Source of the DNA: a virus | Taxonomy: Duplodnaviria; Heunggongvirae; Uroviricota; Caudoviricetes | Virus record (IMG/VR): IMGVR_UViG_3300029713_000003 | Coordinates: 17,710-81,709 of that record | Direction: 5' to 3' (one strand) | Length of the DNA stretch: 64,000 nt | Shown: in pieces, positions 5,538 through 63,763 of the stretch | Numbering within the stretch: the first letter of the stretch is position 1 | Layout of the letters: the number at the start of each line of letters is the position of its first letter | The notes under the pieces: generated by a model | The model's database searches: none | The model's input: only the letters and a program-made list of their open reading frames with translations | Told to the model about the DNA's origin: nothing | Translations under genes and position numbers: made by a program

Positions 5538-5649
5538 TATGAAACACTCCTTCCTTTTGTCCTCCCTATGTCCCTTATTAAACAACTTGCATTTTTGAAA
5601 TCAAACAAAAAAAGAGGAGGAGACCTTTCGACCTCCTCCTCAATCCAGC

Positions 5650-18797: not shown

Positions 18798-19327
18798 TAC
18801 AGCATCTTTCCAATCTCGTCTCTGATTTTTCTTTGAGCCACAAGAACATTATCATTGAACCGATCCCTGTAAAGTTTTGTGGCGTTTGCCATAAAGTTCT
18901 GCCCAGAGGGATGGTTAAAACTCTCTGGAAGTGGTTCTGGTTTTTCGCCAGCTGGAACATGTACAGACTTTTCATCAATATTTCCGTTCCATGTTTTTTG
19001 ACCCGGCTTTGTAAACAATGGGCCTCCCGCTTGGTTGCCAGTAGCCAGCACCATTGCACGAACGTAATCACCGTCATCATGGTCTTCTGGCATGTAAACC
19101 TTTCCAATCACCTTTTGCGAATGAGGGTCATAATATGGCTCCTCCGCAACAAGAGAATCGGCAATGTCGGCAGCCCAGTTCTTTTTCTTTTTGCTTGAAT
19201 GTTCAGACTGTATTTCACTCATCACACGAGCTTTGTATTCAGCTTGCGACTGCCGGACAGTATCGAGAGCAATGTCAATTGCCAACTGCATAAAATCAAT
19301 GGCCATTGACAGCACCGCCTGCTTCAC
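18797..19327 (-). CDS. Hypothetical connector-region protein, 176 aa
   Basis: ORF in the structural operon; start overlaps the neighbouring gene. Confidence 0.4.
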   Translation of the reverse strand: MKQAVLSMAIDFMQLAIDIALDTVRQSQAEYKARVMSEIQSEHSSKKKKNWAADIADSLVAEEPYYDPHSQKVIGKVYMPEDHDDGDYVRAMVLATGNQAGGPLFTKPGQKTWNGNIDEKSVHVPAGEKPEPLPESFNHPSGQNFMANATKLYRDRFNDNVLVAQRKIRDEIGKML

Positions 19328-28258: not shown

Positions 28259-28302
28259 TTACGCTTCCCTCCTTTAATATTAAAAAAGAGCTGATTTTGA
28301 AA

Positions 28303-29537: not shown

Positions 29538-29613
29538 TGGTGCCAGCGGTCGGACTTGAACCGACAAATCAACGGGTTAGATCCGTTTGCATATGCCATT
29601 CTGCTACACTGGC
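29538..29613 (-). tRNA. tRNA with anticodon CUA (candidate amber suppressor; isotype undetermined, possibly Gln-derived)
   Basis: 76-nt cloverleaf: acceptor GCCAGTG/CGCTGGC, discriminator A, CCA encoded. Anticodon stem AACGG/CCGTT is perfect. Anticodon loop is AUCUAAC with U33, C34-U35-A36 and A37. T arm is GTCGG-TTCAAGT-CCGAC. Confidence 0.6.
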
Positions 29614-29617
29614 AAAT

Positions 29618-29692
29618 TGGAGCCGGACACGGGACTCGAACCCGCAACCTGCTGATTACAAGTCAGCTGCTCTACCATTGAGCTAATCCGGC
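29618..29692 (-). tRNA. tRNA-Thr (anticodon TGT)
   Basis: Cloverleaf with D stem GCTC/GAGC, anticodon loop CTTGTAA and T loop TTCGAGT. Confidence 0.7.
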
Positions 29693-29807
29693 ACATGGCG
29701 TACTTGATATTTGGTGACGAAGACAAGTACACGAACTACTCCGGGAGACTGCGGGCGATCAACTCCGCTTGCTGGTTTTACAGTCAAGGTGGCTTCCTTC
29801 ACCTTTC

Positions 29808-29891
29808 TGGTGCGGACAAAGAGACTTGAACTCTTACGAGATAACTCACCAGATCCTAAGTCTGGCGCGTCTGCCATTCCGCCACGCCCGC
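29808..29891 (-). tRNA. tRNA-Leu (anticodon TAG), class II
   Basis: 84 nt with a long variable arm; anticodon loop CTTAGGA; T arm AAGAG-TTCAAGT-CTCTT. Confidence 0.65.
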
Positions 29892-29904
29892 ATAATCTTT
29901 ACAA

Positions 29905-29980
29905 TGGCAGGGCCTAAAGGATTCGAACCTTTATCTTCTCGTTTTGGAGACGAGTGTTTTACCAGTTATACTAAAACCCC
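29905..29980 (-). tRNA. tRNA-Trp (anticodon CCA)
   Basis: Anticodon stem CTCGT/ACGAG, loop CTCCAAA, T loop TTCGAAT. Confidence 0.7.
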
Positions 29981-30087
29981 ATATGGCGGTTTGAAAATTT
30001 CGGAGGTGCCGCCAATCCATCATCCGAACGTAAGCAAGGATTGCCACGACAATCCCAGAAACCTTTTCTACACTAGTAGATAGGCAA

Positions 30088-30164
30088 TGGTGCGCCATCT
30101 GAGGTTCGAACTCAGGGCTCCGTGATTAAAAGTCACGTGCTCATACCAACTGAGCTAATGGCGC
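30088..30164 (-). tRNA. tRNA-Lys (anticodon TTT)
   Basis: Acceptor GCGCCAT/ATGGCGC is perfect; loop CTTTTAA; T loop TTCGAAC. Confidence 0.7.
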
Positions 30165-30246
30165 ATAAATGGCTGGTTGCCCCTCCCACCAACCAATATC
30201 CTGATCTCCATGGGACACATCACCCAATCAGGCACCCACATCGGTT

Positions 30247-30717
30247 TTAGTTCAGAATGATTTTCTCTTTCTGCGATTGCTCTGCATAATCCTGAAACAT
30301 GATATTACCGGCGAGTAATTCGTCATAGCTGATACAAGAAGTGCAGCCGTTCCGAACCATCAGGGACTGTTCCTGAACACCGGGCATCACAACAAGCAGA
30401 ATCGGCTTTTCTTTTGCAAAGGCATAGCCGGCTTCCCAAGCAGTACCGCAAGTTCCATTCCTGCCAAAGTCAAACACGACCACTGTATCAGATTGGTCGA
30501 TTGCAAGAACATCTTCGGTAAACACGCATCGCGCCCATTCGCTCTGCGGCATGTTCCATGCGTTGGGAATCTTTAGCTTTCTAGGATTGTAGATGTTTGC
30601 CTGACGACCGAGCTTGTCCTGAACATATTTTTCAAGAACCAAGATGGCGTCGTCAATTTGACCGCGCTTGCTGCACGACAGTCCGACAACCGGCGCGGCA
30701 ATATAAAAATCAAACAT
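30247..30717 (-). CDS. Nucleoside 2-deoxyribosyltransferase-like protein, about 156 aa
   Basis: Strong RBS AGGAGGG-N5-ATG at the internal Met; the track ORF extends upstream across tRNA-Tyr. Motifs FYIAAP ... FDFGRNGTCGTAWEAGYAFAKEKPILLVV resemble the NDT family signature. Family assignment is from memory. Confidence 0.5.
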   Translation of the reverse strand: MFDFYIAAPVVGLSCSKRGQIDDAILVLEKYVQDKLGRQANIYNPRKLKIPNAWNMPQSEWARCVFTEDVLAIDQSDTVVVFDFGRNGTCGTAWEAGYAFAKEKPILLVVMPGVQEQSLMVRNGCTSCISYDELLAGNIMFQDYAEQSQKEKIILN

Positions 30718-30739
30718 AAACCCTCCTGATAAAACAAAA

Positions 30740-30825
30740 TGGTGGGAGAGGAAGGACTCGAACCTTCGGCGTTTCAGTCGTGGGGGATTTACAGTCCCTT
30801 GCCTTCGCCACTGGGCTACTCTCCC
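30740..30825 (-). tRNA. tRNA-Tyr (anticodon GTA), class II
   Basis: 86 nt with a long variable arm; loop CTGTAAA; T arm GAAGG-TTCGAGT-CCTTC; CCA encoded. Confidence 0.7.
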
Positions 30826-31086
30826 ATAATGGTACTCCATCCCGGTAACGATCCGGGTAGTCCTGCGTGAGAGGCAGGCGGCTCAACCTTTTGCCTTATG
30901 GAGCATAAAATTGTAGTCTGTCCATGTATAGCCGTCTATCACATCGCCTCGTTTAATGACGGTCGCAGGATCAGATGTCCCGCACTGGCCGAGTCACGCA
31001 GCAAGCTCGCTTCTAAAAGGCACTCGACTAATTCTCCGCTTGCCCGGATGCCGGCGTCACCATCGCCGGAGGGGACAGACTCAATT

Positions 31087-31161
31087 TGGTACTCCGTGAG
31101 GGAATCGAACCCTCGACAGCAGCTTGAAAGGCTGCCCGCTTGGCCACTTGCGTAACGGAGC
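31087..31161 (-). tRNA. tRNA-Glu (anticodon TTC)
   Basis: Anticodon stem GCAGC/GCTGC, loop CTTTCAA, T arm GAGGG-TTCGATT-CCCTC. Confidence 0.65.
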
Positions 31162-31165
31162 ATAA

Positions 31166-31240
31166 TGGCGGTCTATCCGGGAGTTGAACCCGGCTCTTAG
31201 CCGTGACAGGGCTACATCCTTACCGATGAACGAATAGACC
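31166..31240 (-). tRNA. tRNA-Asp (anticodon GTC)
   Basis: Acceptor GGTCTAT/ATAGACC; loop CTGTCAC. Confidence 0.7.
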
Positions 31241-31245
31241 ATAAT

Positions 31246-31321
31246 TGGTGGGACAGAAGAGATTCGAACTCTTAGTCGGACGGGTTTGAGCCGTCTGCGT
31301 CTGCCGTTGCACCACTGTCCC
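31246..31321 (-). tRNA. Class-I (short variable arm) tRNA with anticodon CAA, an atypical combination
   Basis: 76 nt. Acceptor GGGACAG/CTGTCCC and anticodon stem GACGG/CCGTC are both perfect. Loop is CTCAAAC with a 5-nt variable loop, T arm AAGAG-TTCGAAT-CTCTT and CCA encoded. Confidence 0.55.
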
Positions 31322-31323
31322 AA

Positions 31324-31398
31324 TGGTGGAGGCACCGGGAATCGAACCCGGATTTACGGCTTGCAAAGCCGTCACACGAACCATTATGTTATGCCCCC
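31324..31398 (-). tRNA. tRNA-Ala (anticodon TGC)
   Basis: G3:U70 pair present in the acceptor stem; loop TTTGCAA. Confidence 0.7.
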
Positions 31399-31408
31399 AA
31401 TCGGGGTA

Positions 31409-31484
31409 TGGTGGGCTATGCAGGGATTGAACCTACGCGCAGCCGTTTATGAGACGGCAGCTCTACCACTGAGCTAATAGCCCG
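31409..31484 (-). tRNA. tRNA-Met/fMet/Ile2 (anticodon CAT)
   Basis: D stem GCTC/GAGC; loop CTCATAA; T loop TTCAATC. Confidence 0.65.
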
Positions 31485-31520
31485 TAAAATCCGGAGCGGA
31501 TGAACCGCCCCAGAAAAAAA

Positions 31521-32453
31521 TTACTCAATACTTCCAATGTCTACGATGGGAGTGCTGCCGCCGGAAACCTTCGGTACAGAACCGTCCCACTTTTCGTACT
31601 TGATCTTTTCAATCAGCTCAGGGGTAAGCGAAGCAGCAATCTTCTTGTTCGCGTCGGCTTCCGCTTCTGCCGCAATACGCAATGCTTCAGCGTCCGCCTG
31701 CGCAGCGATCAGCTTTTTGTCCGCCTCAATCTGAGCAACTTCCTTGTCTCGTTCTGCGTTGATTTGCGCAATGTTCCGATCCTTCTCTGCTTTGATACGA
31801 TCTGTTTCTGCCTCAATCTCCGCCAGCTCTTTATCCTGCTGAGCATTGACCTTCTTCTGGATAGCCGCTGCGGTTTCCTCGTCCACAGAAATATCTGTAA
31901 AGTTTACCGTATCAATGATGATGCCGTACTTATCGAACTTCTCTCGCAGATAAACGTCCAACTCCGCATTGATCTTGGTGCGCTTGTCGCCAAAGATATC
32001 TGTCACCGGGTAGTTCGCAGAAACTTCCTGCGTCCATGCAATGATCTTCGGTTTGATAAAGGTTTCCTTGATCTGCTCGCCGCTCTTGCCCTTGAACTGA
32101 ACAAAGGTATCGGACACTCGGTCGGCGTCGAAACGATAAGAGAACTCAAGGTTCACACGAACCGTCTTGCCATCCGATGTCGGAATCACAAAGCTCTCAT
32201 CCTTGGGAGAATCACCTTTAGAGTCAGTGGTCAAATAGCTCTGCTCAATGCCGATAGAATAGAGCGTCACATTCTTCGTCGGTGAGATCACATGCCAGCC
32301 TTGTGAAAGCGTATCGCCTTCAATACCGCCGTTCATGTTGTACACAACGCCGACATAGCCGGCTGGAACACGTTCCGTGCAGAAACCAACGCACACCAGA
32401 ATGACGACCATCACAACGCCCAGAACAATCGCACCTACAGTACCTTTTCTCAT
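31521..32453 (-). CDS. SPFH/band-7 (prohibitin/HflK-like) membrane protein, 310 aa
   Basis: N-terminal transmembrane helix, then an SPFH-like core (GYVGVVYNMNGG...) and a long charged coiled-coil C-terminus. Confidence 0.6.
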   Translation of the reverse strand: MRKGTVGAIVLGVVMVVILVCVGFCTERVPAGYVGVVYNMNGGIEGDTLSQGWHVISPTKNVTLYSIGIEQSYLTTDSKGDSPKDESFVIPTSDGKTVRVNLEFSYRFDADRVSDTFVQFKGKSGEQIKETFIKPKIIAWTQEVSANYPVTDIFGDKRTKINAELDVYLREKFDKYGIIIDTVNFTDISVDEETAAAIQKKVNAQQDKELAEIEAETDRIKAEKDRNIAQINAERDKEVAQIEADKKLIAAQADAEALRIAAEAEADANKKIAASLTPELIEKIKYEKWDGSVPKVSGGSTPIVDIGSIE

Positions 32454-32614
32454 ACTTCCTTCTGCGCTCCTTCGTCCTTATCTTCTTCTAGGATTTTTTC
32501 TTTTGCGTCGCGATAAATACGTTGGAAGAGTATACCGAGCGGTTGAAACAGTGCTGAAGCACAAAACCAGATTCCGACAGCCGCTACCACAACCAGAAAA
32601 TAAAACACCGGCAT
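32450..32614 (-). CDS. Small membrane protein (NfeD-like partner candidate) upstream of, and overlapping, the SPFH gene
   Basis: Internal start with strong RBS AAGGAGGAAG. Hydrophobic MPVFYFLVVVAAVGIWF... The track ORF extends across tRNA-Asn. Confidence 0.4.
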   Translation of the reverse strand: MPVFYFLVVVAAVGIWFCASALFQPLGILFQRIYRDAKEKILEEDKDEGAQKEV

Positions 32615-32643
32615 ATAATCTTCCTCCTTGTTTATCACACGCA

Positions 32644-32720
32644 TGGCTGGCCGGGTGGGACTTGAACCCACGACCCTCCGCTTAACGGGCGGACGCTCTA
32701 ACCAACTGAGCTACCGGTCA
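32644..32720 (-). tRNA. tRNA-Asn (anticodon GTT) with C33 (atypical)
   Basis: D stem GCTC/GAGC; anticodon stem TCCGC/GCGGA; loop CCGTTAA; T arm GTGGG-TTCAAGT-CCCAC. Confidence 0.55.
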
Positions 32721-33524
32721 ATATAAAAGGGAAAGCCTGAGACTTACTTGAGCTCTCCATGCTCTCTTCTCCTGTCGTTGGAAACAGCCAGTCACACACC
32801 GGGTTAGGGTGTAGAGAGCAACCACACTGGTTTTGAGAAAGCCAGCAAAATCTTGCAATGGAGTATTATAGATTTTCTTTCAGCACATCGCTCCTTGCGG
32901 GATGCAGAGCTTGCGGGCTCTTACGGTTGCACCTACTTGTACTTTCTTACATGTCGCCTTGCGAGCTTCATGCACGTTCATATTCCAGAACGATAAGTGG
33001 TTTGTTTCTCCAAAGCCACATACACTTTTGCTTCTTCATTTCTCAATAACATTAGAAATTCATGCTGCTTTTTCAAAAGCTAAGTGTATGTTCTGGATGA
33101 CGGGGTATGTGCTTGACCATTCGTGCCTTTTGAACACGACCCAGCCGCCGCCACCCTGCGCGTCTTGCTATCGACGCCCTTCCTGTGCGGCACCTTTCTT
33201 TCGATATGAGATGCCCGTCCACAGGATCCGTACAGCACTCACCCTTGCGAAGCTCGCACCATACGTCGGTTCATGCATTCTACTCATTTCTGAGATTAGG
33301 TTTCTAGCGCTTTTCCCATAGCGCCCATCCGACCATAGTCATCAGCAGTTGCCCTCTGACCGCAGGCAGGATGTATGCAGATACCGGTTTTCCGTTGCAG
33401 TGTCCAAGACACTCGCACAAGGTACAACCCTTGTGCTTTATACGTATCACTACGCTTATCTAAGGAGCCGAAACCACCCCGTCCCTTGTTTCATTTCAGG
33501 CTGAAACAGGGAATAAAAGAACCA

Positions 33525-33600
33525 TGGTAGCAGACTTGGGAGTCGAACCCAATCCTCAAGGAGCATGAATCCCGCGACTTAACCGCTTGTCCTGTCTGCT
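33525..33600 (-). tRNA. tRNA-like with CAT anticodon; degenerate (imperfect anticodon stem, G37), possible pseudo-tRNA
   Basis: 76 nt. Acceptor AGCAGAC/GTCTGCT is perfect and the T arm TTGGG-TTCGACT-CCCAA is good. The anticodon stem has a mismatch and a wobble pair. Confidence 0.4.
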
Positions 33601-33703
33601 GTAAACTAGAGTAGCCACCCATCTCAACTACTCCCATGTGCCTTCGCTTTATACTGATGTAATCCGATGCAGATTGGCTACTGCTTCAGGCACTCCACGT
33701 TAT

Positions 33704-33958
33704 TCACTCGCAAATTTTCCAATCTGCAGCCAACATATCTGCTTGAGACGCAAGCCAGCCCATCTGTATGCCGCCGGTTCCAACAAACGCAATCGCCTGA
33801 TTCCCAATCGCGTCATGTTCGCAGTTGACAATTTCGTTCCGGCTGTTGATGTAGCTGATGCAGGTTGCTAGTTCAATATACTGGTTTTTACCGTTCCACC
33901 CGCTGCGCTGCACACGTGCTCCGCACTTCATTGCCTCAATCGCTTCTCCGAATTTCAT
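33704..33958 (-). CDS. DUF2829 / Tad2-like small protein (candidate anti-Thoeris sponge), 84 aa
   Basis: MKFGEAIEAMKCGARVQRSGWNGK ... SQADMLAADWKI matches my recollection of the DUF2829 N- and C-terminal signatures. RBS GAAGGAG; sits inside the tRNA array. Confidence 0.5.
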   Translation of the reverse strand: MKFGEAIEAMKCGARVQRSGWNGKNQYIELATCISYINSRNEIVNCEHDAIGNQAIAFVGTGGIQMGWLASQADMLAADWKICE

Positions 33959-33979
33959 CTCAAGACTCCTTCATTTCTC

Positions 33980-34053
33980 TGGTCGAAAACGTCGGACTCG
34001 AACCGCTACTCGTCGTCCCAGGCGACGCGTGTTACCATTACACCACGTTCTCG
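33980..34053 (-). tRNA. tRNA-Pro-like (anticodon TGG) with C33 and a weak T stem; possibly degenerate
   Basis: Anticodon stem CGTCG/CGACG is perfect; loop CCTGGGA; acceptor pairs. The T stem has only 3 bp. Confidence 0.4.
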
Positions 34054-34235
34054 TTATCCGGTGAGATTTGGATCATACCAAATCAAACACCCGTCTCTTC
34101 AGCTCTTCCATATTGCCATCCGCCTCATAGAGACCGGCAATCCTCGCAGCGCTGAAGAACATCTTCACCATCTTCAAAAACATGATCTTCAACCTTTTGT
34201 TTTTTATTATTTGTGCAGGTCTGGGCACCGCACAT

Positions 34236-34309
34236 TGGAGTGCGATATGGGGATTGAACCCACGATTTCAGCTTGGAAGGCTGACGTGTTACCTCTACAC
34301 TAATCGCAC
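34236..34309 (-). tRNA. tRNA-Gly (anticodon TCC)
   Basis: Acceptor GTGCGAT/ATCGCAC; loop CTTCCAA; discriminator U. Confidence 0.7.
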
Positions 34310-34313
34310 ATCA

Positions 34314-34387
34314 TGGCTACCGAGGCTGGAGTTGAACCAGCAATACAGGAGTCAAAGTCCCGTGCCTTGCCGTTTGGCTACTCGGCA
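34314..34387 (-). tRNA. tRNA-Gln (anticodon TTG)
   Basis: Loop CTTTGAC; discriminator G; T arm GCTGG-TTCAACT-CCAGC. Confidence 0.65.
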
Positions 34388-34509
34388 ATGATTGGTAAAA
34401 AAGATGCCTTTCTCATTCACTCCGCAAAGTGCGAGCTTTCACCAAGCCGTCTTACCATGTATGGCAGACCTGTCGCCGCTATGGCTGCCGTAGCAGTACC
34501 GGAGGGCGC

Positions 34510-34600
34510 TGGCGGAGACGGTGTGATTCGAACACACGGTAGAAAATTTCCCTACGACGGTTTAGCAAACCGCTGCCATAAACCACTCGGCCACGTCTCC
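34510..34600 (-). tRNA. tRNA-Ser (anticodon GCT), class II
   Basis: 91 nt with a long variable arm; loop TTGCTAA. Confidence 0.65.
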
Positions 34601-34856
34601 AGAAACAGAGTGCAGTTTTTCAGCTCTTAATGTCTGTTGCCCTGCACCGTGGCGTCCTCTCATTATGGACTTATCGGCGTTGCTCTCCGTCGTGTCGCAA
34701 TTGCTATCGGTTTGTGTTCCGTCCGGCTCTGCGCTTTTAAGCGCAACTACGGAAGGGAGCGACCCTGCACATTGAGGGGAAACGGGTTTCGAACACCCCT
34801 CTAAACCCAGGGTTCCGGACACCTGGTAAATCATTGTCACCCGTTATTTTTTATAG

Positions 34857-34923
34857 ACCAGCCGCCCGGACTTGAACCGGGGTCGCACGCTGTACAGCCG
34901 TGTGCAGCCACCTGACCAGCTGG
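34857..34923 (-). tRNA. Short tRNA-like element (67 nt, reduced D arm, possible GTA anticodon); likely pseudo or atypical
   Basis: Good T arm CCCGG-TTCAAGT-CCGGG and a pairing acceptor stem, but the D loop is only 4 nt and the anticodon stem is imperfect. Confidence 0.3.
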
Positions 34924-34927
34924 ATCA

Positions 34928-35012
34928 TGGTGCCGACAGCGGGACTTGAACCCGCACGGGATAACCCATGGGATTTTAAGTCCCAAACGTCTGCCAATTC
35001 CGTCATGTCGGC
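34928..35012 (-). tRNA. tRNA-Leu (anticodon TAA), class II
   Basis: 85 nt; anticodon stem TGGGA/TCCCA; loop CTTAAAA; long variable arm; CCA encoded. Confidence 0.7.
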
Positions 35013-35114
35013 ATAGTGCTTGTTCTCGGACAGCGGCAGCTCCTGTCCCGTACCCGAAGGCCAAGCAAAGCCTGCATCTTTAGCAGTTCTACCTTGAGGG
35101 AAAGATGCTGAAAT

Positions 35115-35188
35115 CGGATCGTGCCGGATTCGAACCGACGCCCTTCGGTTGCGCTGACCAACGCTCTGACCAGCTGAGCTAACCACCC
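35115..35188 (-). tRNA. tRNA-like (Arg-like D arm; anticodon loop CAGCGCA, i.e. GCG with A33 and C37); probably degenerate
   Basis: D arm TAGCTCAGCTGGTCAGAGC and T arm GTCGG-TTCGAAT-CCGGC are good. Acceptor has 6 of 7 pairs; the anticodon loop is non-canonical. Confidence 0.35.
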
Positions 35189-35242
35189 GAAATCAGCTAT
35201 AGACTTGAAGAGCCCCTCTTGCTCTTCGCACGGTACGTTCTT

Positions 35243-35330
35243 TGGCGGGGCAGGTAGGATTTGAACCCACGGACGGTTGCCCGTCAAGAGTTTTCAAGAC
35301 TCCCGCCTTAAGCCACTCGGCCACTGCCCC
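35243..35330 (-). tRNA. tRNA-Ser (anticodon TGA), class II
   Basis: 88 nt; loop CTTGAAA; long variable arm; acceptor GGGGCAG/CTGCCCC. Confidence 0.7.
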
Positions 35331-35358: not shown

Positions 35359-36204
35359 TCATTGACACTCGATAGCGTCATCAGGAATGCGTTCTAGTTC
35401 AGCGTCATAGAACTGAACGGCTCCGGACGCAGCAACCGCGCAGTAAACTGTGTCCATGTCGTAGAGTTCGCCAGCTTTTGTTTTCTTGGGACTGTATTTG
35501 TCGTACTGCTCAGGAATGATCCTGTATCGGTTTCCAAGAAACGAGAAAGCGTTCTCTGTATCCACAACCGCAGAGACGAGCTCCTTAACGCCGTTGTCGC
35601 GGCGGATGCTCATGCTCCGGTCTAGTTTTGTTCGGCTCGCTTTTTTCTTTCGCGGCTTCACGCCGTATCTTTTTTCAGCCTTGTTGTCCGCATGCTCCAT
35701 CATACCGCGAAAGCAATCATCTTCTGCTTTCATCAGCATATCATTTCTGTTCACATGTACGCCACTATATACAGTGTCTTCCACAAAGGATGGGCAAGAC
35801 GATACAGGAATTTCTCGCTTCCCATTCATAATCTGTTTGTAGTCGGTCACTATATCGTCAGCGCTGCCCATGATTAAAAAGTATCCTAAACTGGAAAGGA
35901 ACATCTTGACTTTGTTCTCTGGAGAATACGGATTAGAACTTGTAATGCCTACCCAATTCTTCTCACAATACCAAGCCCATTCGTTCAGAAGGTCTTTGAC
36001 AATCTGAATGCGTTCATCCAGACAAGACGCCTTCACCTTCTTTACCGTGCCATTGGGCTGGAGGATGTTATATCCCGTTGCCAATACGCTATCCCTTCCC
36101 TCAGTATATATTAAACAAGATCGCTTTTTGAAATCAAAGGCTATATGGAACCGCGCTTCTTGAAAAACGCTTGCATGGTTTAGAGACTGCAGTTGGCAGC
36201 GCAT
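35359..36204 (-). CDS. Hypothetical protein (start uncertain; track ORF begins with TTG at 36249)
   Basis: Long ORF between the tRNA array and the small late-arm genes; no recognisable motifs. Confidence 0.35.
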   Translation of the reverse strand: MRCQLQSLNHASVFQEARFHIAFDFKKRSCLIYTEGRDSVLATGYNILQPNGTVKKVKASCLDERIQIVKDLLNEWAWYCEKNWVGITSSNPYSPENKVKMFLSSLGYFLIMGSADDIVTDYKQIMNGKREIPVSSCPSFVEDTVYSGVHVNRNDMLMKAEDDCFRGMMEHADNKAEKRYGVKPRKKKASRTKLDRSMSIRRDNGVKELVSAVVDTENAFSFLGNRYRIIPEQYDKYSPKKTKAGELYDMDTVYCAVAASGAVQFYDAELERIPDDAIECQ

Positions 36205-37477: not shown

Positions 37478-37888
37478 TCATTGGAGCAAGCTATTCAGCG
37501 TATCACTAATCAACGCCTTGGTGATTCCTTTCAGAATCTCGTTGGCAACAGCCCCGCGATCTGCGTTCAAGCCTTTACTGATCACATCGCCGATAGCATA
37601 CGCCAGTGCATAAGTCACATCCGCCAGAGTCTTCGCGTCGCTTACATCAGTCGGAAAGATGACATGCGCATCTGAATCTTCGTCATTCTCGGTATACGCC
37701 ACCGTGATGAGATTGGTTTTCTTCTCTTCGACAGGCTTCTCGGCGGGAGTCTTTTCCTTCTCCGGCTCGACAGGCTTTTCTTCCGTCTTGCCGACCTCGT
37801 TGGCAACGGCATCGCACATGCCTTTCAGGATCGCAGCCATCGCCTCGTCACAGTTCATTCCACGGGTCAGCGCATCAAACATCGTCAT
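37478..37888 (-). CDS. Hypothetical protein, 136 aa (first gene of the leftward arm)
   Basis: ORF adjacent to the divergent control region. Confidence 0.45.
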   Translation of the reverse strand: MTMFDALTRGMNCDEAMAAILKGMCDAVANEVGKTEEKPVEPEKEKTPAEKPVEEKKTNLITVAYTENDEDSDAHVIFPTDVSDAKTLADVTYALAYAIGDVISKGLNADRGAVANEILKGITKALISDTLNSLLQ

Positions 37889-37899
37889 GATTTCAAATC

Positions 37900-38215
37900 C
37901 TCCAGTCGTTTAATAGAGTAATAATTAAATACAATATATAGAGTTTACTTTATACTGTTAACTCAATATATCATATTTGTTTATTTACATACTTAAATCA
38001 ATAGACAAATAAATATTTAATCAATATATTGTACAGGTTAGTTTTAGTATTTAGTATCTATTGAAACCTTACTCACATAAATATTAACTATTTATTGTTT
38101 TACTTATCTTATTCAATCTTACTTATCTTACTAAATCAATCTATTGTATTACTCAGTTAAATCAATTTACTATAAGCTGTTGTTATTGTTGTTGTTGATG
38201 TTGCCGTTACACCTA
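37900..38215. repeat. AT-rich block with short direct repeats (TAAATCAAT three times, CTTATCTTA-like, TGTTGTTATTGTTGTTGTTGATGTTG)
   Basis: About 75% AT and devoid of ORFs. Lies between the leftward sigma-type promoter copy and the first leftward gene. Confidence 0.5.
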
Positions 38216-38249: not shown

Positions 38250-38540
38250 AAAATAAAACTTTTTGAAAAAACTTTTGCAGGACAATATAAGAGTATGTAC
38301 CTCTTTTTTGAGTTTCTACTGGAGGACTCTGGCTGGAGGTAAAGCATAGAACAAACGTAATCCATACACCTGTAATACATAGCACATTACTTGAGCGGTT
38401 TCTGGATTAGAATGCTATATAAGAATAACGATAGTGTCATAACCGCCATAGAAATTGTGTGCGGTTTTGCTTCGATTGGCGTCGAACTCAAAAAGAGAGT
38501 TTCATCTAGTTATATGACAGGCATATGGTTTCTAAAAGTA

Positions 38541-38549
38541 TGCTATACT
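38541..38549 (+). promoter_or_regulatory. Extended -10 promoter candidate TGcTATACT (rightward). A similar TGcTATATA lies at 38413-38421.
   Basis: Matches the TGnTATAAT extended -10 consensus. The same TGCTATAAT type recurs at 56171. Confidence 0.35.
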
Positions 38550-38622
38550 TTTTCAACGTAAAATACAGTTATGTTAAATTGATTTTATTTCTTTTTCGGG
38601 TAAATCGCCGTTTTCGTGTTAC

Positions 38623-39046
38623 CTTGTCAATGTCGAAAGCGACAAGCCGAAAGGCAAGTAGCCGACGATATATCCCCTGCACCTTGACAACCGCATAGCA
38701 GTAGCCCCTGCAACAAAAAAGGGCATGATATGCAACGCATAGCAAGTTTGTACTATGCTTGTTGTGTTAAGTGGCTGATGTTCAAATAGAGCAAATGACG
38801 CCCACAATGGCTACACCCTTGACAGGGCAACCCGTCTAAATCGCGGGGATAAGTGTAGAGCTTTGCAGACGCAACGAACCATAGGCAAATACTACCTTGT
38901 GTTATGTATCAAGTGGGCATTGCGTAGAACCTTGTTCCCCTTTGGGGAAAGTGGGTATTACTGTGTGGCTATATGCCACTGTGATAAAGCTAAAACAATG
39001 CGGCAGTATACCCTACGCCCACACTGTCAAAGTAGGTCTTGACAGC
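38623..39046. promoter_or_regulatory. Operator-like inverted repeats containing TTGACA half-sites (CTTGTC-N12-GACAAG near 38623; CTGTCAA-N8-TTGACAG near 39023), plus extra CCTTGACA copies at about 38681 and 38816
   Basis: Seen directly in the divergent leader upstream of the first rightward gene. Confidence 0.35.
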
Positions 39047-39110
39047 CTTGCATAGGTTTTCAGAATTTGACATTAGAACAAAAATTCGACTGTGAAAGGA
39101 AGAAAACATT

Positions 39111-43210: not shown

Positions 43211-44080
43211 ATGTATACAACTTCAAAGAAGTGGGAAAGTTTTGAACCTCAAAAACTTCCCGGCGTTGAAATCTATGGGGCAAAAGAAATTGCACAGGTT
43301 TTTGGAATCGGTTTATCAACGGTTACTCTCTGCATGACTAACAAAAACTCTTACAATAAAATTCTTGTACAAAAGGTTAGAAAATTTGCAAAGGAAGTTG
43401 GATATAAACAGAAAAATGCAAAGTATTGGGAGAATTTTGAACCTCAAAAACTTCCGGGCGTAGAGGTCTATACTGCTGCGGATATTGCGAAAATTTTTGG
43501 AATTTCTGAGGGTTATGTTTGGAATATTATGGGAGGAATCAAAACTTGTTCCGCTCCTCTTCGGGAAAAGGTTTTACAATTTGCACAATCAGTTGGTTAT
43601 GATGGCAAAACATCTTGCTGCACACGAGGTGCAAAGCTGCGTGGGTTTTCTTCTATGGAGCAACGCGATGAGCATCTTAGAAAGTTACGTGAAATGGGAT
43701 ACTCAAATGCAGAAATTGCCAAACTCTCTGGATATGGATATGAACACATATGTGAATTGCTTGGCCCTCAGCCAAAAGAGATCACGCAGAAATCTAGGGC
43801 TCGCGCTGGGAAAATCCGCTCCATGAAAGCGCAAGACCGCAAAGAAGCATCTGCTGAAATAAAGCGCAAACAGGAGATTGCGGAAGCTAACGTCAAGGTC
43901 GAAGAATACCATGCGGCGCTGGATAAGTTAACCGCTCTTGATGAAGAACTTGCACAGCTCAAGATGAAGTATCTTTCTGCCAAGGCGGAAACTAAGAAGC
44001 TCCGTAAGGCAATCCCGAAATGCGCAACCGTACCCATTCGGGAGCTTACTCAGCAAATTCCAATGGGAATTGAACATTAA
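43211..44080 (+). CDS. Putative DNA-binding regulator with two tandem duplicated HTH-like modules, a third HTH-like segment and a C-terminal coiled coil; 289 aa
   Basis: Internal ~60-aa direct repeat WE(S/N)FEPQKLPGVE(I/V)Y...I(A)(Q/K)(V/I)FGI..., also visible as a DNA repeat at 43229-43290 and 43421-43480. Confidence 0.45.
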   Translation: MYTTSKKWESFEPQKLPGVEIYGAKEIAQVFGIGLSTVTLCMTNKNSYNKILVQKVRKFAKEVGYKQKNAKYWENFEPQKLPGVEVYTAADIAKIFGISEGYVWNIMGGIKTCSAPLREKVLQFAQSVGYDGKTSCCTRGAKLRGFSSMEQRDEHLRKLREMGYSNAEIAKLSGYGYEHICELLGPQPKEITQKSRARAGKIRSMKAQDRKEASAEIKRKQEIAEANVKVEEYHAALDKLTALDEELAQLKMKYLSAKAETKKLRKAIPKCATVPIRELTQQIPMGIEH

Positions 44081-44122
44081 ACACAGGGAGCCGGAATTTC
44101 TGGCTCTCTCTTTTAGTGCTCG

Positions 44123-44160
44123 ACCCGGAACAAATCGGCACTATATCGCCCCAATTAAAA
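44123..44160 (+). promoter_or_regulatory. Copy 2 of bipartite motif ACCCGGAAC-N15-CGCCCCAATTAAAA, about 20 nt upstream of the gene at 44180
   Basis: Seen in sequence. Confidence 0.45.
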
Positions 44161-44428: not shown

Positions 44429-44606
44429 CCGAACCATGCGTCTCATTCGCAAGATGGAGGAGCGCGGCTATCACTATGACGAGCTGGAATCTCATTCTGG
44501 CTGGTGGCATTTCTTCGGTGCGTACAGCACCATGGCATTCCAGACATGGAAAGAAGTAGAGGCATGGTTGAAAGAAACGGAGGATTTGTATGGAGCAGAA
44601 AGTTGA
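44406..44606 (+). CDS. Hypothetical protein, about 66 aa
   Basis: RBS GGATAGGAGG-ATG. Confidence 0.4.
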   Translation: MANMRHSDRTMRLIRKMEERGYHYDELESHSGWWHFFGAYSTMAFQTWKEVEAWLKETEDLYGAES

Positions 44607-45504
44607 CATTTATCAGGAGATCACCAATCGCGTAATTGCTGCGCTGGAAAACGGAACCGTTCCGTGGCAGCAGCCTTGGGTTTCTGTCAACGGCATAGGC
44701 GCATATAACCGCGTCAGCAGAAAGCCCTATTCTCTGCTCAACCAGATTATTCTCGGTCAGCCGGGTGAATGGGCGTCCTTCAAACAGTGGCAAGCGGCAG
44801 GTGCTCATGTCAAGAAGGGAGAGAAATCCTCGCTCAATGTGTGGTGGAGTGTCTTGACCTTTCCGAAGAAGGATGATTCCGGCAATGTGGAACGGGATGG
44901 GAACGGCAGTCCCGTTATGGTATCCGTCCCGAAACTCAAGTGGAATCGCGTGTTCCATATCTCGCAGGTGGAGAAAAATGAGGGCGGCGTTATGGAACCC
45001 GTCATTCAACCGGAACCCTTGCCCAATGGCGTGAAGCCTGTGGAGCTGGCAGATAAAACGTTTCTGGAATATCTGGACAGGGAGCATATCCGTTTGGAAG
45101 AAGGCGGCGACCGCGCCTGCTATTCTCCATCGTTTGACCGCATCTGTCTGCCGGAACGCGCTCAGTTCAAGAGTACGGCAGAGTATTATTCCACCGCATT
45201 CCATGAGGCGGTTCATTCCACCGGGCATAAGTCACGGCTGAACCGGATTGAAAAAGACGCGCATTTTGGAAACACGGAATACAGCAAGGAAGAACTCTGT
45301 GCGGAAATGGGCAGCGCTATGATTCTTCATACGCTGGGTGTGGATACAGAATCCAGCTTTGCCAACACGGCGGCATATATCAAAAGCTGGCTCAGGGTTC
45401 TTAAGGGTGACAATAAATTTGTCGTCGGCGCGGCATCCCGTGCGGAAAAAGCCGCAAAGTTCATTCTCAATATTGAGGAAAAAAGGAGCGTTGAAAATGC
45501 GTGA
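44590..45504 (+). CDS. ardC: ArdC-like antirestriction protein (N-terminal ssDNA-binding domain plus C-terminal HExxH zincin-like domain)
   Basis: N-terminus DIYQEITNRVIAALENGTVPWQQPW matches the ArdC-N signature. C-terminal FHEAVHSTGH is an HEXXH motif. Confidence 0.65.
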   Translation: MEQKVDIYQEITNRVIAALENGTVPWQQPWVSVNGIGAYNRVSRKPYSLLNQIILGQPGEWASFKQWQAAGAHVKKGEKSSLNVWWSVLTFPKKDDSGNVERDGNGSPVMVSVPKLKWNRVFHISQVEKNEGGVMEPVIQPEPLPNGVKPVELADKTFLEYLDREHIRLEEGGDRACYSPSFDRICLPERAQFKSTAEYYSTAFHEAVHSTGHKSRLNRIEKDAHFGNTEYSKEELCAEMGSAMILHTLGVDTESSFANTAAYIKSWLRVLKGDNKFVVGAASRAEKAAKFILNIEEKRSVENA

Positions 45505-55788: not shown

Positions 55789-56153
55789 TGAAGCCGGACG
55801 AATGGATTTTGACCGATGACGATTGCGCTCAGTATTTGCGCTCGATTGGTAACGCGCATTATGAAGGATGGATGATGGCAGAAGTAGCAGATGATGACAC
55901 CTACGAAGTTCACCATGTCTTTATCAATTTTGAAGATTATGAAATTGACTCTGAAGATTTTGAAGCAGAGTATCTGAATCCTTATGGTTATGCCAATCTT
56001 GAGGATGTTTGTTCTCAGTATGGGGATGAGTGGGAGCAGATCGTCGTGGAATGCATCATGGAAACGGAACTTTTTGAGACGCCTTGCTCGTTTGTTGGAA
56101 CCTTCGATGAGTGCAATCGTTATATTGTAAGAGTAATTTCATCAGACTATTGA
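55785..56153 (+). CDS. Hypothetical acidic protein, about 122 aa
   Basis: ORF with overlapping start. Confidence 0.4.
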   Translation: MMKPDEWILTDDDCAQYLRSIGNAHYEGWMMAEVADDDTYEVHHVFINFEDYEIDSEDFEAEYLNPYGYANLEDVCSQYGDEWEQIVVECIMETELFETPCSFVGTFDECNRYIVRVISSDY

Positions 56154-56161
56154 CGGATGGT

Positions 56162-56179
56162 TTGACACAGTGCTATAAT
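56162..56179 (+). promoter_or_regulatory. Extended -10 promoter TGcTATAAT (a TTGACA lies immediately upstream, too close to serve as a -35) in a 140-nt intergenic gap
   Basis: GTGCTATAAT at 56170-56179. Confidence 0.45.
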
Positions 56180-60347: not shown

Positions 60348-61301
60348 TTGAGCACGGTTATTACTCTCAAGCGTTCCTTTGATCGGTATCCTATGATTAT
60401 GTTCTATGCCCAGTCCAGAAAGAAGCAGTGTTCGGAAACGACCAATCATCAGTGTGTGGAACGCCTGAATACCATTTTCGATGAGCTGATTGATAACTAC
60501 GGTGTCATTCTTCATGAGCGGTGGGTTGAAAAACTTACAGGTCATGTGCTGCAAAGCTGGTTTAATGATTTCGTGGATACCCGTAAACCATCTACCATCA
60601 ATAACTATCTTTCCTTCTTGAACCCTTTCCTTCGCTGGGCATTTAAGATTGGCTATATGCCGGATGACTTGACGGGTCTGCTTCGGACACTGCGCATCCC
60701 GTCTGTGGATAAAGTTCCGGAGTGGGATCGACCGCAGGAAAAATATCTTACCCATGCTCAAGTGGTACAGCTCCTTGAAAATATGGACATCGGCACTTAT
60801 GCCAAGAGAAACCGTGCCATTGCCGCACTGTTTCTCTTCTCCGGTATACGAGTCAGTGAACTTTGCAGCCTGACCATCGGCTCTGTTTTTGGCAGACCCC
60901 GTGGAACACTGTATTGTAAGCGAAAAGGCGGCACTTGGTGCGACGTTGAAATCAGCATGGATGTATATCCCTATCTGGAAGATTATCTGGAGACGCGGAA
61001 AGACCGTGACAACCTGTCCGCGCCGCTGTTCCTGTCGGCTCGCGGTAATCCAATGGATCGGTTCTCCGTGTATGCGGCTATCCGCCCTGTTCAGGAGAAG
61101 CTGGGCGTTGCCACAGGGCCCCATGCCTTGCGCCATACCTATATTTCGGAAGTGGAAAAGCTCAGCAGCCCTTCTGTAGCAAGAGATCTTGCCAACCACA
61201 AGTCTATTCGTATCACAAACCGCTATGACCATTCCAGTCCAGAGCAACGCAGAGATGCGGTGGATAAACTGCACTGGGGTAACGTTCCAAAGCTCGGCTG
61301 A
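60348..61301 (+). CDS. int: Tyrosine recombinase / phage integrase family protein, 317 aa (TTG start)
   Basis: C-terminal catalytic signature R...HALRHTYISE...HKSIRITNRY (R, H-x-x-R, H, Y). RBS TAAGGAGGG. Confidence 0.7.
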   Translation: MSTVITLKRSFDRYPMIMFYAQSRKKQCSETTNHQCVERLNTIFDELIDNYGVILHERWVEKLTGHVLQSWFNDFVDTRKPSTINNYLSFLNPFLRWAFKIGYMPDDLTGLLRTLRIPSVDKVPEWDRPQEKYLTHAQVVQLLENMDIGTYAKRNRAIAALFLFSGIRVSELCSLTIGSVFGRPRGTLYCKRKGGTWCDVEISMDVYPYLEDYLETRKDRDNLSAPLFLSARGNPMDRFSVYAAIRPVQEKLGVATGPHALRHTYISEVEKLSSPSVARDLANHKSIRITNRYDHSSPEQRRDAVDKLHWGNVPKLG

Positions 61302-61314
61302 TGGACGTTGTGGG

Positions 61315-61350
61315 AACCGGAGATGAAATAATCTCCGGTTTTTTATTTTT
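61315..61350 (+). terminator. Rho-independent terminator after the recombinase gene
   Basis: 10-bp stem AACCGGAGAT/ATCTCCGGTT with loop gaaata, followed by TTTTTTATTTTTT. Confidence 0.7.
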
Positions 61351-61437: not shown

Positions 61438-62538
61438 ATGGCTACTCTTCAGTTCAAAAAGGCAAAACGAAGCCAAGTCGCAATCAAGATCGGCATCGGC
61501 GGCCCCAGTGGCTCCGGCAAGACCATGTCTTCGCTGCTGCTTGCCTATGGTTTGCTCAAGGCAGAGCATCCGGAATGGTCGGATGAGGAATGCTGGGATC
61601 ACATCTGCCTCATCGATACGGAGAACGGTTCCGGTTCGCTGTACACCGGAGACACCGTCGGCGAGACGCACATCGGCGAGTATAACACGATTGATATGGC
61701 TCCGCCTTTCACGCCGACTAGTTTCGTGGACGCCATCCATATGGCGGAGGAGCATGGGATGCGCGTCATCATCATCGACTCTCTGACCCATGCATGGACT
61801 GGTGAAGGCGGTTCGCTGGACAAGCAGGGCAAGATCGCTTCCCGTTCCGGTAATTCGTACACCGCATGGCGCGAGGTAACGCCGGAGCATAACCGGCTGG
61901 TGGATACCATGCTTCAGTCCAAGTGCCATCTGATTGCGGATATGCGAGCCAAGATGGATTACGAGCAGGTCAAGGGTGCGAACGGCAAATCTCAGGTGAA
62001 AGCCGTTGGCATGGGCGTCCAGATGCGCGAAGGCATCGAGTATGAGTTTACGACTTTCTTCATGCTGGATTATGAACACATCGCCAACGCCACCAAGGAT
62101 CGTACTCATATGTTCGATGGCGCGTACTTCACCATTTCGCCCAAGACTGGTCGCGCTTTCTATAATTGGCTGACCACAGGCGCTCCCATTAAGAAGGAAG
62201 AGAAGCAGGAAGCACCCGCTGTCCCGCAGCCCAAGAAAGCAGAAAAGAAGCCGCCTGTTTCCGAGCCGCCTGCTGCCGAGCCGTCTGCTGCACCCGAAAT
62301 GCCGGAGCCTCCGGCGGAGGATGACAGCTTGCCGTTTATGGATGATGAACCGACAGAAGCCGCTCACGTTACGATGGAACAACTGGATAAGGCAATTCGC
62401 TCTGCCTGCGCCGGTAAGACTACGGCAGAGAAGAAGGAAATCGGTGAGAAAATCAAGGCTGTCGCCGGCACCGGTAATTATATGAAGATTACCGATCAGA
62501 CAATCATTGACAAGCTCTACGAAATGTTTCAAGGATAA
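61438..62538 (+). CDS. RecA-core ATPase (Sak4 / AAA_24-like recombination protein) with a Pro/Glu/Ala-rich C-terminal extension
   Basis: Walker A GGPSGSGKT; Walker B RVIIIDS. Internal EDDSLPFMDDEP resembles an SSB C-terminal tail. Confidence 0.5.
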   Translation: MATLQFKKAKRSQVAIKIGIGGPSGSGKTMSSLLLAYGLLKAEHPEWSDEECWDHICLIDTENGSGSLYTGDTVGETHIGEYNTIDMAPPFTPTSFVDAIHMAEEHGMRVIIIDSLTHAWTGEGGSLDKQGKIASRSGNSYTAWREVTPEHNRLVDTMLQSKCHLIADMRAKMDYEQVKGANGKSQVKAVGMGVQMREGIEYEFTTFFMLDYEHIANATKDRTHMFDGAYFTISPKTGRAFYNWLTTGAPIKKEEKQEAPAVPQPKKAEKKPPVSEPPAAEPSAAPEMPEPPAEDDSLPFMDDEPTEAAHVTMEQLDKAIRSACAGKTTAEKKEIGEKIKAVAGTGNYMKITDQTIIDKLYEMFQG

Positions 62539-62549: not shown

Positions 62550-62951
62550 ATGGCAGTTAACAAACTTCATACGATTGGCCGCTTGACCGCAGACCCCGAA
62601 ATGCGCGAGGCAGGCGGCGTCCCCTGCGTCAATTTCAACCTTGCTTCCGACACCCGCAATAAGGATGCCAGCGGTAATACGACGACGAACTACTATCGCG
62701 TTACGGCGTGGCGCAAAACCGCCGAGGTTATGGCAAAGTACTTGCATAAAGGCGACAAAATCTATATCGAGGGCGAGCTGGTTATTCGGGAGTACAAGGA
62801 TAATAACGGCAACAACCGCACGGCTGTCGGCATTACGGTTTCGGAGTTTGATTTCATTCAGACCAAGCGAAACGATCAGTCGGAATCGGCAAGCGCCGCC
62901 CCGAAACAGAGCGGTTTCACCGCTGTTGATGACGACGATCTCCCGTTCTAA
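62550..62951 (+). CDS. ssb: Single-stranded DNA-binding protein
   Basis: OB-fold-like N-terminus (NKLHTIGRLTADPE...), Gly/Asn-rich linker and the canonical acidic tail DDDDLPF. Confidence 0.75.
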   Translation: MAVNKLHTIGRLTADPEMREAGGVPCVNFNLASDTRNKDASGNTTTNYYRVTAWRKTAEVMAKYLHKGDKIYIEGELVIREYKDNNGNNRTAVGITVSEFDFIQTKRNDQSESASAAPKQSGFTAVDDDDLPF

Positions 62952-62988: not shown

Positions 62989-63624
62989 ATGTCACCGTTC
63001 ATTAGAACGACTCACTGCCAACGTCACTTTGCTGGCCGCTCCTATGAAAGGAAGCGCATCAAAGTGGATGAACAGCGACTCATCGAGAAAAACAATCGTT
63101 GGATTTGGAAGAACGTGCATGCCTTTTCTCGTAAGCAAACCGGCTACGGCTCTATTCGGTATGATGAAGACGACCTCTATCAGGAATGTGTACTGTATTT
63201 ACTTCAGCGGTTCAGAAGATCAGGAAAAACCGTTGATGAATTTATGGTTTCCGATTTTGATCTGCGCCATGTCATGTGCGAATACATTCAGTCCCTGCTT
63301 CCCGTCACAACCCCAAAGACCGTCCGCAATTATTCCAAGATGATGACGGAGCATGGAGCGCAGAAAGTGGAACCAACCGAAGTTTTCTCTTCCGATATCA
63401 ATCAGGCTTCGGCGGACGCAGAGTTTGCGGTAGACATTCATCATTTGAAAGAGCGGCTAGACAAACGCGATCAGCAAGTTTTGAAATACATCCTGTTAGG
63501 GTATAGCTTTGCTGAAATCAGTAAGGAGATGACCATGCCAAAGGTTACACTGAATCGCGCTAAACAGCGCATAGGACGACAATATAACCAGTATATGGGA
63601 GGACGTTATGGAAAATTTGATTGA
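62989..63624 (+). CDS. Sigma-70 family (ECF-like) RNA polymerase sigma factor; possible alternative GTG start near 63063
   Basis: Region-2-like LYQECVLYLLQRF and region-4 HTH LDKRDQQVLKYILLGYSFAEISKEMTMPKVTLNRAKQRIGRQ. Confidence 0.55.
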   Translation: MSPFIRTTHCQRHFAGRSYERKRIKVDEQRLIEKNNRWIWKNVHAFSRKQTGYGSIRYDEDDLYQECVLYLLQRFRRSGKTVDEFMVSDFDLRHVMCEYIQSLLPVTTPKTVRNYSKMMTEHGAQKVEPTEVFSSDINQASADAEFAVDIHHLKERLDKRDQQVLKYILLGYSFAEISKEMTMPKVTLNRAKQRIGRQYNQYMGGRYGKFD

Positions 63625-63763
63625 TGTCTCGATGAGCAGAAGCCATTATGATGCACTTATCAAAACCTGTGGCTCTTACGAGAAGGCTGTGGCGTATGTC
63701 AACGATACCTATGGCTACCTCGGAACAGTCGTTAAGCTGGTTGTCACAGATTAAAGTAGAGTC
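63617..63763 (+). CDS. Small protein, 48 aa (below the ORF-track cutoff)
   Basis: RBS GGAGGACGTT-ATG overlapping the sigma gene stop. Confidence 0.3.

Follow-up and report, generated by a model that had tools for sequence, protein, structure and literature searches.

Here we describe two promoter-like motif classes and two sigma factor genes in an uncultured gut phage, of which a 64,000-nucleotide (nt) stretch (positions 17,710 to 81,709 of the Caudoviricetes IMG/VR record IMGVR_UViG_3300029713_000003; hereafter the window) was analysed. We lean towards reading the first class, class I, as a phage-specific promoter recognised by host core RNA polymerase (RNAP) carrying a phage sigma factor, most likely sigma1, whose gene lies close to the end of the window. 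The motifs, their positions, their conservation, and the sigma folds and domains of both sigma proteins are directly observed. Class I is found at DNA-metabolism genes and class II at terminase/portal and tail genes; since class I copies mainly head DNA-metabolism operons, this class looks like a signal for middle expression more than a late switch.

Class I sites in the window and in related contigs

There are exactly three matches to the pattern ACCCGGAAC-N{12,17}-CGCCCCAATTA in the window, and none in 100 dinucleotide-preserving shuffles. No other 11- or 12-mers recur as often in the phage as the two boxes. Each of the three copies lies between genes and points toward the next one (Table 1). 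When aligned, they have in common the boxes, an upstream T-rich run and a few downstream bases, while the 14-15-nt spacer varies. The initial annotation had listed these three copies together with the genes behind them, and both are confirmed: the Sak4-SSB-sigma operon, which encodes sigma1 itself, the ArdC-like gene and the minus-strand structural arm each follow a copy. As a count for the phage, however, three is too low, as at least five sites exist, two of them exact copies outside the window (L009 and L002).

All five distinct sites of the lineage are intergenic and co-oriented with the next gene, a ribosome-binding site (RBS) and ATG lie 22-52 nt downstream in four of the five, and a detected terminator lies directly 5' of three (P1, P2 and the 44k copy). 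The shortest distance is that of the 44k copy, with the RBS AAGGAGG and an ATG 22 nt 3' of the motif; at P1 the RBS and start codon follow at 52 nt, and P5 faces the minus-strand arm over a 327-nt AT-rich leader.

Within the viral collection, only this phage lineage has exact matches. A looser pattern gave seven extra loci there (L017-L023), which are without the extended motif or T-rich context and look like chance. A 17-base pattern gave at least 120 loci in GTDB genomes, which lack the extended motif and are likewise chance-like, with one exception. This locus (L033; JAUMVT010000016.1) is a 39-kb contig in a "Clostridia bacterium" metagenome-assembled genome (MAG) and shares 90% identity with the phage's dUTPase region, class I site included. 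Because this contig of a relative was binned in a Clostridia MAG, the sole host hint, the host of the phage is probably a Clostridia bacterium.

Table 1. Positions of motifs, genes and other features (in the window unless a contig is named)
Feature	Position	Strand	Description
Class I, P1	61352-61385	+	spacer 14, exact match; heads Sak4-SSB-sigma1 operon
Class I, 44k copy	44123-44157	+	spacer 15, exact match; heads 82-residue open reading frame (ORF) and ArdC-like gene
Class I, P5	38249-38216	-	spacer 14, exact match; top of minus-strand arm; conserved in L007
Class I, outside window	L009 17437		heads PDDEXK nuclease-PhoH-ClpP-DnaE
Class I, outside window	L002 5620		heads dUTPase-nucleotide kinase-RuvC
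Intrinsic terminator	61312-61343	+	13-bp stem and T-run; between integrase gene and P1
Intrinsic terminator	44085-44109	+	11-bp stem and T-run; directly 5' of 44k motif
Class II	36109-36137	-	heads 241-residue ORF and tRNA array; orthologue in L007
Class II	28278-28306	-	heads endonuclease, terminase, portal and following genes; orthologues in L186 and L175
Class II	5576-5604	-	after terminator; heads distal-tail (Sipho_tail) gene and tail protein of >1490 residues (tail-fibre-like)
Class II, fourth copy	L177 713-742		outside window
sigma1	63064-63624	+	186 residues; divergent two-domain (sigma2 + sigma4) sigma factor; mechanical ORF 62989-63624
sigma2	L009 12126-12683; L010 12806-13372; L014 8290-8820		185 residues; about 3.5 kb past window end
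48-residue ORF	63608-63754	+	overlaps sigma1 3' end; 48-residue gene at same position in L010-L013
Sak4-like AAA_24 ATPase	61438-62538	+	PF13479, E 3e-18; PHROG 1366 and 124; first gene of P1 operon
SSB	62550-62951	+	PF00436, E 3.4e-27; second gene of P1 operon
Tyrosine integrase	60348-61301		directly upstream of Sak4-SSB-sigma operon
sigmaA-type promoter, best in window	56150-56179	+	TTGACG-18-TGcTATAAT (TG extension)
ArdC-N and zincin-peptidase protein	44590-45504		ArdcN + MPTase-PolyVal; downstream of 44k motif
Three-HTH (helix-turn-helix) protein	43211-44080	+	289 residues; HTH_23 26.1 bits (cut-off 24.6); LacI-type and Sigma70_r4-type HTH matches
Leader	37889-38215	-	327 nt, AT-rich, non-coding; between P5 and first minus-strand ORF (37478-37888)
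Tape-measure protein	5650-15873	-	3407 residues; PF10145 at residues 1360-1571
Tail protein	from 4471 past window start	-	>1490 residues; frame free of in-frame stops to window edge
L015	1-4965 (4965-bp contig)		sigma1 homologue 48% identical, class II, 237/241-residue and 217-residue module, class I-like site, integrase
L200	1-5100 (27-kb contig)		sigma1 homologue 42% identical, class II, 237/241-residue and 217-residue module, class I-like site, TnpV

The sigma1 protein and its family

Every sigma1 homologue begins at MDEQ, which corresponds to GTG 63064, and the ribosome-binding site GAAAGGAAG lies upstream of this codon; the protein therefore probably starts there, inside the longer mechanical ORF, and has the length given in Table 1. 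It matches PHROG 1740, "RNA polymerase sigma factor" (E 7.5e-13), and the only match of the family profile among Protein Data Bank (PDB) sequences is region 4 of SigH (3mzy, E 8.6e-6). Structural matches are to sigmaE region 4 on -35 DNA and to the N-terminal domains of SigE and SigR. In the predicted fold, a linker of low confidence (residues 82-119) connects two domains, an architecture without regions 1.1 and 3, and a search against Pfam Sigma70_r2 gave no match. The ORF is thus a real two-domain sigma factor. In the sigma-70 family, sigma2 binds core RNAP and recognises the -10 element, and the helix-turn-helix of sigma4 recognises the -35 element. "ECF-like" (extracytoplasmic function), the term used in the initial annotation, holds as a description of this sigma2 + sigma4 architecture; by curated criteria, the divergence is too great for ECF membership, sigma1 scoring below both the ECF and the Pfam cut-offs in the hidden Markov model (HMM) classification.

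The family comprises 13 clusters in a single-sequence search and 23 with E < 1e-30 in a profile search, all from metagenomes, and is without any characterised member. No match at E <= 1e-3 was found by tblastn in 50,697 GenBank phage records, no homologue was found in the GTDB species representatives searched, and searches of viral, metagenome and genome collections returned close relatives only, or nothing. No recognisable anti-sigma partner was identified. The 48-residue ORF that overlaps the 3' end of the sigma1 gene has no PHROG or family match, and a role as anti-sigma is only a guess.

A second sigma gene and a second motif class

The P1 operon, whose content follows from the genes called in a 114.7-kb relative together with the ORFs of L009, runs for about 10.8 kb and encodes Sak4, SSB, sigma1, a primase-helicase, an HNH protein, a macro domain protein, a second sigma factor (sigma2), a radical-SAM protein and a ligase; no strong terminator was found inside this unit. 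sigma2 is syntenic in L010 and L014, and its gene search returned three clusters, all from the same phage lineage. The collections searched yielded no full-length phage that encodes one sigma without the other. The sigma2 protein scores above the cut-offs of Pfam Sigma70_r2 (34.6 bits against 24) and TIGR02937 (47.9 bits against 42.9). Its region 2 scores best against SigB/SigF/SigG, SigK and RpoD models; it has no region 3 and falls far below every equivalog cut-off.

By comparing the intergenic gaps of the minus-strand arm, we found a second motif, class II (TTGATTTCAAAA-N11-TTAATA(T/A)), with three exact copies in the window, all on the minus strand, against 0.01 expected. Read as hexamers, it is TTGATT-18-TAATAT, which would make a poor host-type promoter; even so, the 12-mer is conserved without a single change. 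The pattern is AT-rich, and the 54 loci that it matches in viral contigs, most of them on other contigs, should be read with this in mind; the four inspected loci of the phage lineage are in L007, L175, L177 and L186. It also occurs in two very small integrative elements, L015 (at 1173) and L200 (at 1953), which are described below.

The structural genes thus carry their own promoter-like signal, class II, and class I does not directly switch on terminase, capsid and tail genes. This modifies the initial annotation, in which the motif switches on the late arm. Terminase, portal, capsid and tail genes are found behind class II, and class I heads mostly replication, recombination, nucleotide and anti-restriction operons together with the top of the leftward arm. 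Of the "self-reinforcing sigma cascade" proposed at the same time, it is borne out that a class I site lies before the operon of sigma1 itself, through which sigma1 may reinforce its own synthesis.

Conservation of class I in relatives

In L010, where sigma1 is 77% identical, all 20 box positions are unchanged in both P1 and P2, while 8 of 14 spacer positions have changed in P1 and 3 of 14 in P2. In L014 (51% identical), ACCCGTTAC-N14-CGCCCCCATTA heads the Sak4-SSB-sigma1 operon after a terminator, and in L202 (36% identical) ACCCCGTTAC...CGCGTTCCCATTG heads the same operon, again after a terminator. The motif is therefore conserved upstream of Sak4-SSB-sigma1 in four lineages (window, L010, L014 and L202). 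Class I-like sites are also present in L015 (GGCCGGAAC-N14-CGCCCCAATTG, before the integrase gene) and in L200 (ACCCGGTCA-N15-CGCCCCCATTG, before TnpV). Because the boxes are invariant and the spacers diverge, and because variants head the same operon in relatives whose sigma1 is 36-51% identical, the motif appears to be functional.

One part of sigma1 appears to follow one part of the motif. The homologues share an invariant block, DL-H-MC-Y-QSLLPV--PKT-R, at the end of the sigma2-like domain, and this block is kept in every lineage that keeps CGCCCC(A/C)ATT. L202 is the sole lineage that has both an altered block (in protein P0022) and a known promoter, and there the downstream box has changed to CGCGTTCCCATT. 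More variation is seen in both the sigma4 helix and the upstream box.

A proposed transcription programme

In the programme that we propose, the upstream box CCGGAAC would serve as the -35 element, the -10 element would lie inside the downstream box CGCCCCAATT, and transcription would start at or just past ATTA. This geometry is consistent in itself: the 22-nt gap at the 44k site would place the start at the 3' end of the motif, and hence the -10 element within CGCCCCAATT.

Early genes would be transcribed by host RNAP-sigmaA. Candidate promoters for this step are the best sigmaA-type promoter of the window, at 56150-56179, and a further candidate early promoter at 39039. At the position equivalent to 56150, upstream of the integrase block, L014 has the consensus promoter TTGACA-17-TATAAT; sigma70-type promoter scans gave no enrichment over shuffles. 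The first sigma1 transcripts would come from sigmaA promoters upstream (for example, that at 56150) by read-through of the terminator at 61312-61343. The sigma1 holoenzyme would then fire the class I units, that is, the P1 operon, PDDEXK-PhoH-ClpP-DnaE, dUTPase-kinase-RuvC, the ArdC-like block and the head of the leftward arm. As the sigma1 gene sits in a class I unit, sigma1 would reinforce its own synthesis. The distal part of the P1 operon would yield sigma2, which would fire class II before the packaging and virion genes, giving a cascade from host sigmaA to sigma1 (middle) and on to sigma2 (late). Promoter function, the pairing of each sigma with a class, the start by read-through and the timing are what we infer from sequence.

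Which protein may read class I

From the few lineages available, sigma1 appears on balance to be the reader of class I. It is favoured over sigma2 because its block tracks the downstream box, while the sigma2 helices diverge under a near-constant motif: the putative sigma2 recognition helices read TRQNVDRIK in the window lineage and TQSYVATIV in L014 (35% identity overall), and class I differs at only 3 of 20 positions between the two. That sigma2 reads class I instead, leaving class II or some other role to sigma1, we consider unlikely. It is the better-scoring sigma by Sigma70_r2 and TIGR02937, and lies in the same class I operon, also in L010 and L014, so that autoregulation and co-occurrence fit it equally well in full-length phages. 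Yet sigma2 was not detected over the full 4965 bp of L015 or within the 10.8 kb examined in L200, both of which carry class I-like sites, and its putative DNA-reading helices are poorly conserved between lineages with nearly identical class I boxes. Furthermore, a region 2 of the SigB/F/G and RpoD type would suit the TTGA...TAATAT-like class II at least as well.

Less probable still is that class I is the site of a regulator other than a sigma factor, acting together with the host sigma. The candidate would be the three-HTH protein, with one box per module. It is encoded directly upstream of the 44k copy, and a site composed of two unlike boxes might be used by a protein that has more than one DNA-binding domain. 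However, class I has neither dyad nor direct-repeat symmetry, its orientation is fixed and its distance to the RBS is short and fixed. The 22-nt case leaves no space for a separate downstream core promoter, and no sigmaA-type hexamers overlap the class I sites. A homologue of the HTH protein was not found by tblastn over the family loci in the motif carriers L015 and L200, and the motif tracks sigma1 across lineages. We give hardly any weight to the view that the repeats are non-transcriptional and serve recombination, replication or packaging, or are left over from a small mobile repeat. The 38k copy is indeed followed by a 327-nt AT-rich, repeat-bearing region that might be an origin or a packaging site, but all five copies face a gene start, three directly behind a detected terminator. 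Conservation, moreover, is limited to the boxes and does not extend to flanks or spacer, and neither terminal inverted repeats nor target-site duplications are present.

Several observations weigh against assigning class I to sigma1. Because sigma1 and sigma2 are encoded in one operon, there is a second candidate reader, and the pairing of sigma1 with class I is one that we infer; of the claim of a sigma with "cognate-looking promoter copies" in the initial annotation, it stands that the motif is promoter-like and tracks the sigma1 family, and the second sigma qualifies the rest. The co-variation of block and box rests on one diverged lineage. In L015 and L200, sigma1 is accompanied by class I-like and class II motifs alike, so that co-occurrence cannot separate the two classes, and the absence of sigma2 from these small elements may only reflect dependence on a helper phage. 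sigma1 itself scores below the curated cut-offs of Pfam Sigma70_r4_2 (20 bits against 25.7) and NCBIfam TIGR02937 sigma70-ECF (31.6 bits against 42.9). Immediately 5' of sigma1, no host sigmaA promoter was detected, and the start-up route would be the indirect one given above. The likeness of GGAAC to an ECF-type -35 element applies to the box of the window lineage; however, this is the less conserved part of the motif, GGAAC being present in the window, L010 and L015 lineages and replaced by GTTAC or GGTCA in L014, L202 and L200. Finally, the AAC-to-CG distance is 14-15 and the GGAAC-to-CCAAT distance 18, and the ECF analogy thus hinges on the bases chosen as -10.

Genome context

A 92-kb IMG/VR contig matches the window in parts at 97% identity and carries the two class I copies that lie outside the window. 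The phage, of a large siphovirus type, uncultured and from the gut, has a genome of about 92 kb. The integrase gene next to the Sak4-SSB-sigma operon suggests that the phage is temperate or episomal; GTDB representative genomes yielded no prophage copy. In L010, a PhdYeFM/ParE toxin-antitoxin pair lies near the integrase-sigma region (L010 2982-3588). In the three-HTH protein, two of the three modules are in near-identical repeats starting WE(S/N)FEPQKLPGVE, and the gene stops just 5' of the terminator and the 44k motif.

The minus-strand arm contains exonuclease, terminase, portal, tape-measure and tail genes. The 3407-residue tape measure implies an unusually long tail. This ORF had been considered as a virion RNAP, an alternative reader of the motif, and was ruled out by its PF10145 match as a tape measure; in the plus-strand arm, no ORF is large enough for a single-subunit RNAP. 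The leader at 37889-38215 contains short direct repeats (TTACTTATCTTA, AATCAAT...) and two words, AACTGAGTAATA and CAATAGATT, that also occur in the leader behind the class I-like site of L200. Extended homology between the two leaders was rejected, as their alignment gave two short common words only. The region may serve as an extended regulatory leader, as an origin or as a packaging site. Between the divergent arms lies an 800-nt non-coding gap (38300-39110) with four TTGACA boxes and one TTGTCA box (38626, 38684, 38822, 39039 and 39068), several within CCTTGACA. The gap has no Rfam match and may be an operator or early-promoter region.

Over the whole window, tRNAs are the only Rfam matches. 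They form an array of 20 genes on the minus strand (29538-35330) with small ORFs in between. One of them, at 29538-29613, has a CTA anticodon (amber suppressor; labelled tRNA-Pyl by ARAGORN). TAG is the stop codon in only 2 of 37 longer genes, and the one large tail ORF examined has no in-frame TAG. Stop-codon recoding was considered for this tRNA and for an apparent ORF gap at 1-4484, and was rejected: from 4471, the minus-strand frame reaches the window edge without meeting an in-frame stop, and there is therefore no evidence of recoding.

Small elements and significance

L015 and L200 combine a sigma1 homologue, both motif classes and a shared module with an integrase or TnpV (Table 1). The 217-residue protein of the module is 21-24% identical to a virion-module protein encoded at 19296-20108 of the window. 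T-arm-like GTTCGAATC fragments lie near the sigma gene of the small elements. The L015 contig has the same 14 nt at both ends, where ARAGORN detected no complete tRNA. We tentatively suggest, as a possibility short of probable, that L015 and L200 are phage satellites that share or hijack the sigma-dependent programme of a helper phage. In such a model, middle transcription by the helper would trigger satellite excision, and its late transcription would express satellite genes that interfere with the virion. Should these islands prove to be satellites, they would exemplify the sharing of a helper's sigma-promoter code by its satellites.

More broadly, the result is a transcription map, open to testing, of an uncultured phage of the gut whose host is probably a Clostridia bacterium; it comprises two sigmas, two consensus sequences and terminator-marked units. 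It defines a likely promoter specificity for the sigma1 family, which has no characterised member and no GenBank-phage homologue. The class I and class II consensus sequences can be used for annotating related metagenomic phages, and a highly specific sigma/promoter pair is the kind of part used in orthogonal gene expression.

Comparison with known systems

The E. coli sigmaE consensus is GGAACTT-N16-TCAAA, which the GGAAC-N18-CCAAT layout of class I resembles. ECF promoters have an AAC-containing -35 element and a CGT-type -10 element, usually 16-17 bp apart. Like the bacterial ECF (group 4) factors, such as E. coli sigmaE, B. subtilis SigW and M. tuberculosis SigE, SigH and SigL, sigma1 is a protein of about 190 residues with only sigma2 and sigma4 domains, and it is putatively associated with a GGAAC-type upstream box, a C/G-containing downstream box and a promoter-like motif before its own operon. 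Unlike them, it falls below curated HMM cut-offs, its putative -10 box is CGCCCCAATT and not CGTC, it has no recognisable anti-sigma partner, and GGAAC is not conserved across its family.

Bacillota phages reportedly carry sporulation-type sigma factors, as Schwartz and colleagues are said to have described in 2022. sigma2 is like these in that its region 2 is best matched by SigB/SigF/SigG, SigK and RpoD. It is unlike them in having no region 3 and in scoring below equivalog cut-offs, and nothing indicates a role in host dormancy.

In Bacillus phage SPO1, gp28 serves middle genes and gp33/gp34 late genes, with the late sigma made from middle transcripts. The SPO1 consensus sequences are AGGAGA/TTTNTTT for middle and CGTTAGA/GATATT for late promoters. 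Like SPO1, the window phage is a Firmicute-type phage with two phage sigmas and two phage promoter classes, the latter putative here, besides sigmaA. It differs in having both sigma genes in one operon and in its unrelated consensus sequences (for the context of the SPO1 cascade, see PMC13401047).

In phiEco32 and 7-11, the middle/late promoters of the phage sigma are few and highly conserved, one of them lies upstream of the sigma gene, and the first sigma transcripts come from host-type promoters (PMC4331800). Looked at in the same way, the window phage has five class I sites with invariant boxes, one of them before the sigma operon. What it has in common with phiEco32 (sigma gp36) and Salmonella phage 7-11 is a small phage sigma and few conserved intergenic promoters, and we propose that host RNAP is redirected here as well. 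It differs in its consensus, its probable Clostridia host and its two sigma genes and two motif classes. The search of the 50,697 GenBank phage records, which presumably include both phages, gave no sigma1 match at E <= 1e-3, and no host-RNAP inhibitor of the gp79 type was identified in the window phage. The proposed gene switch is of a familiar phage kind and belongs to a textbook class of mechanism; what is new is the sigma1 family, the two consensus sequences and the possible link to satellites.

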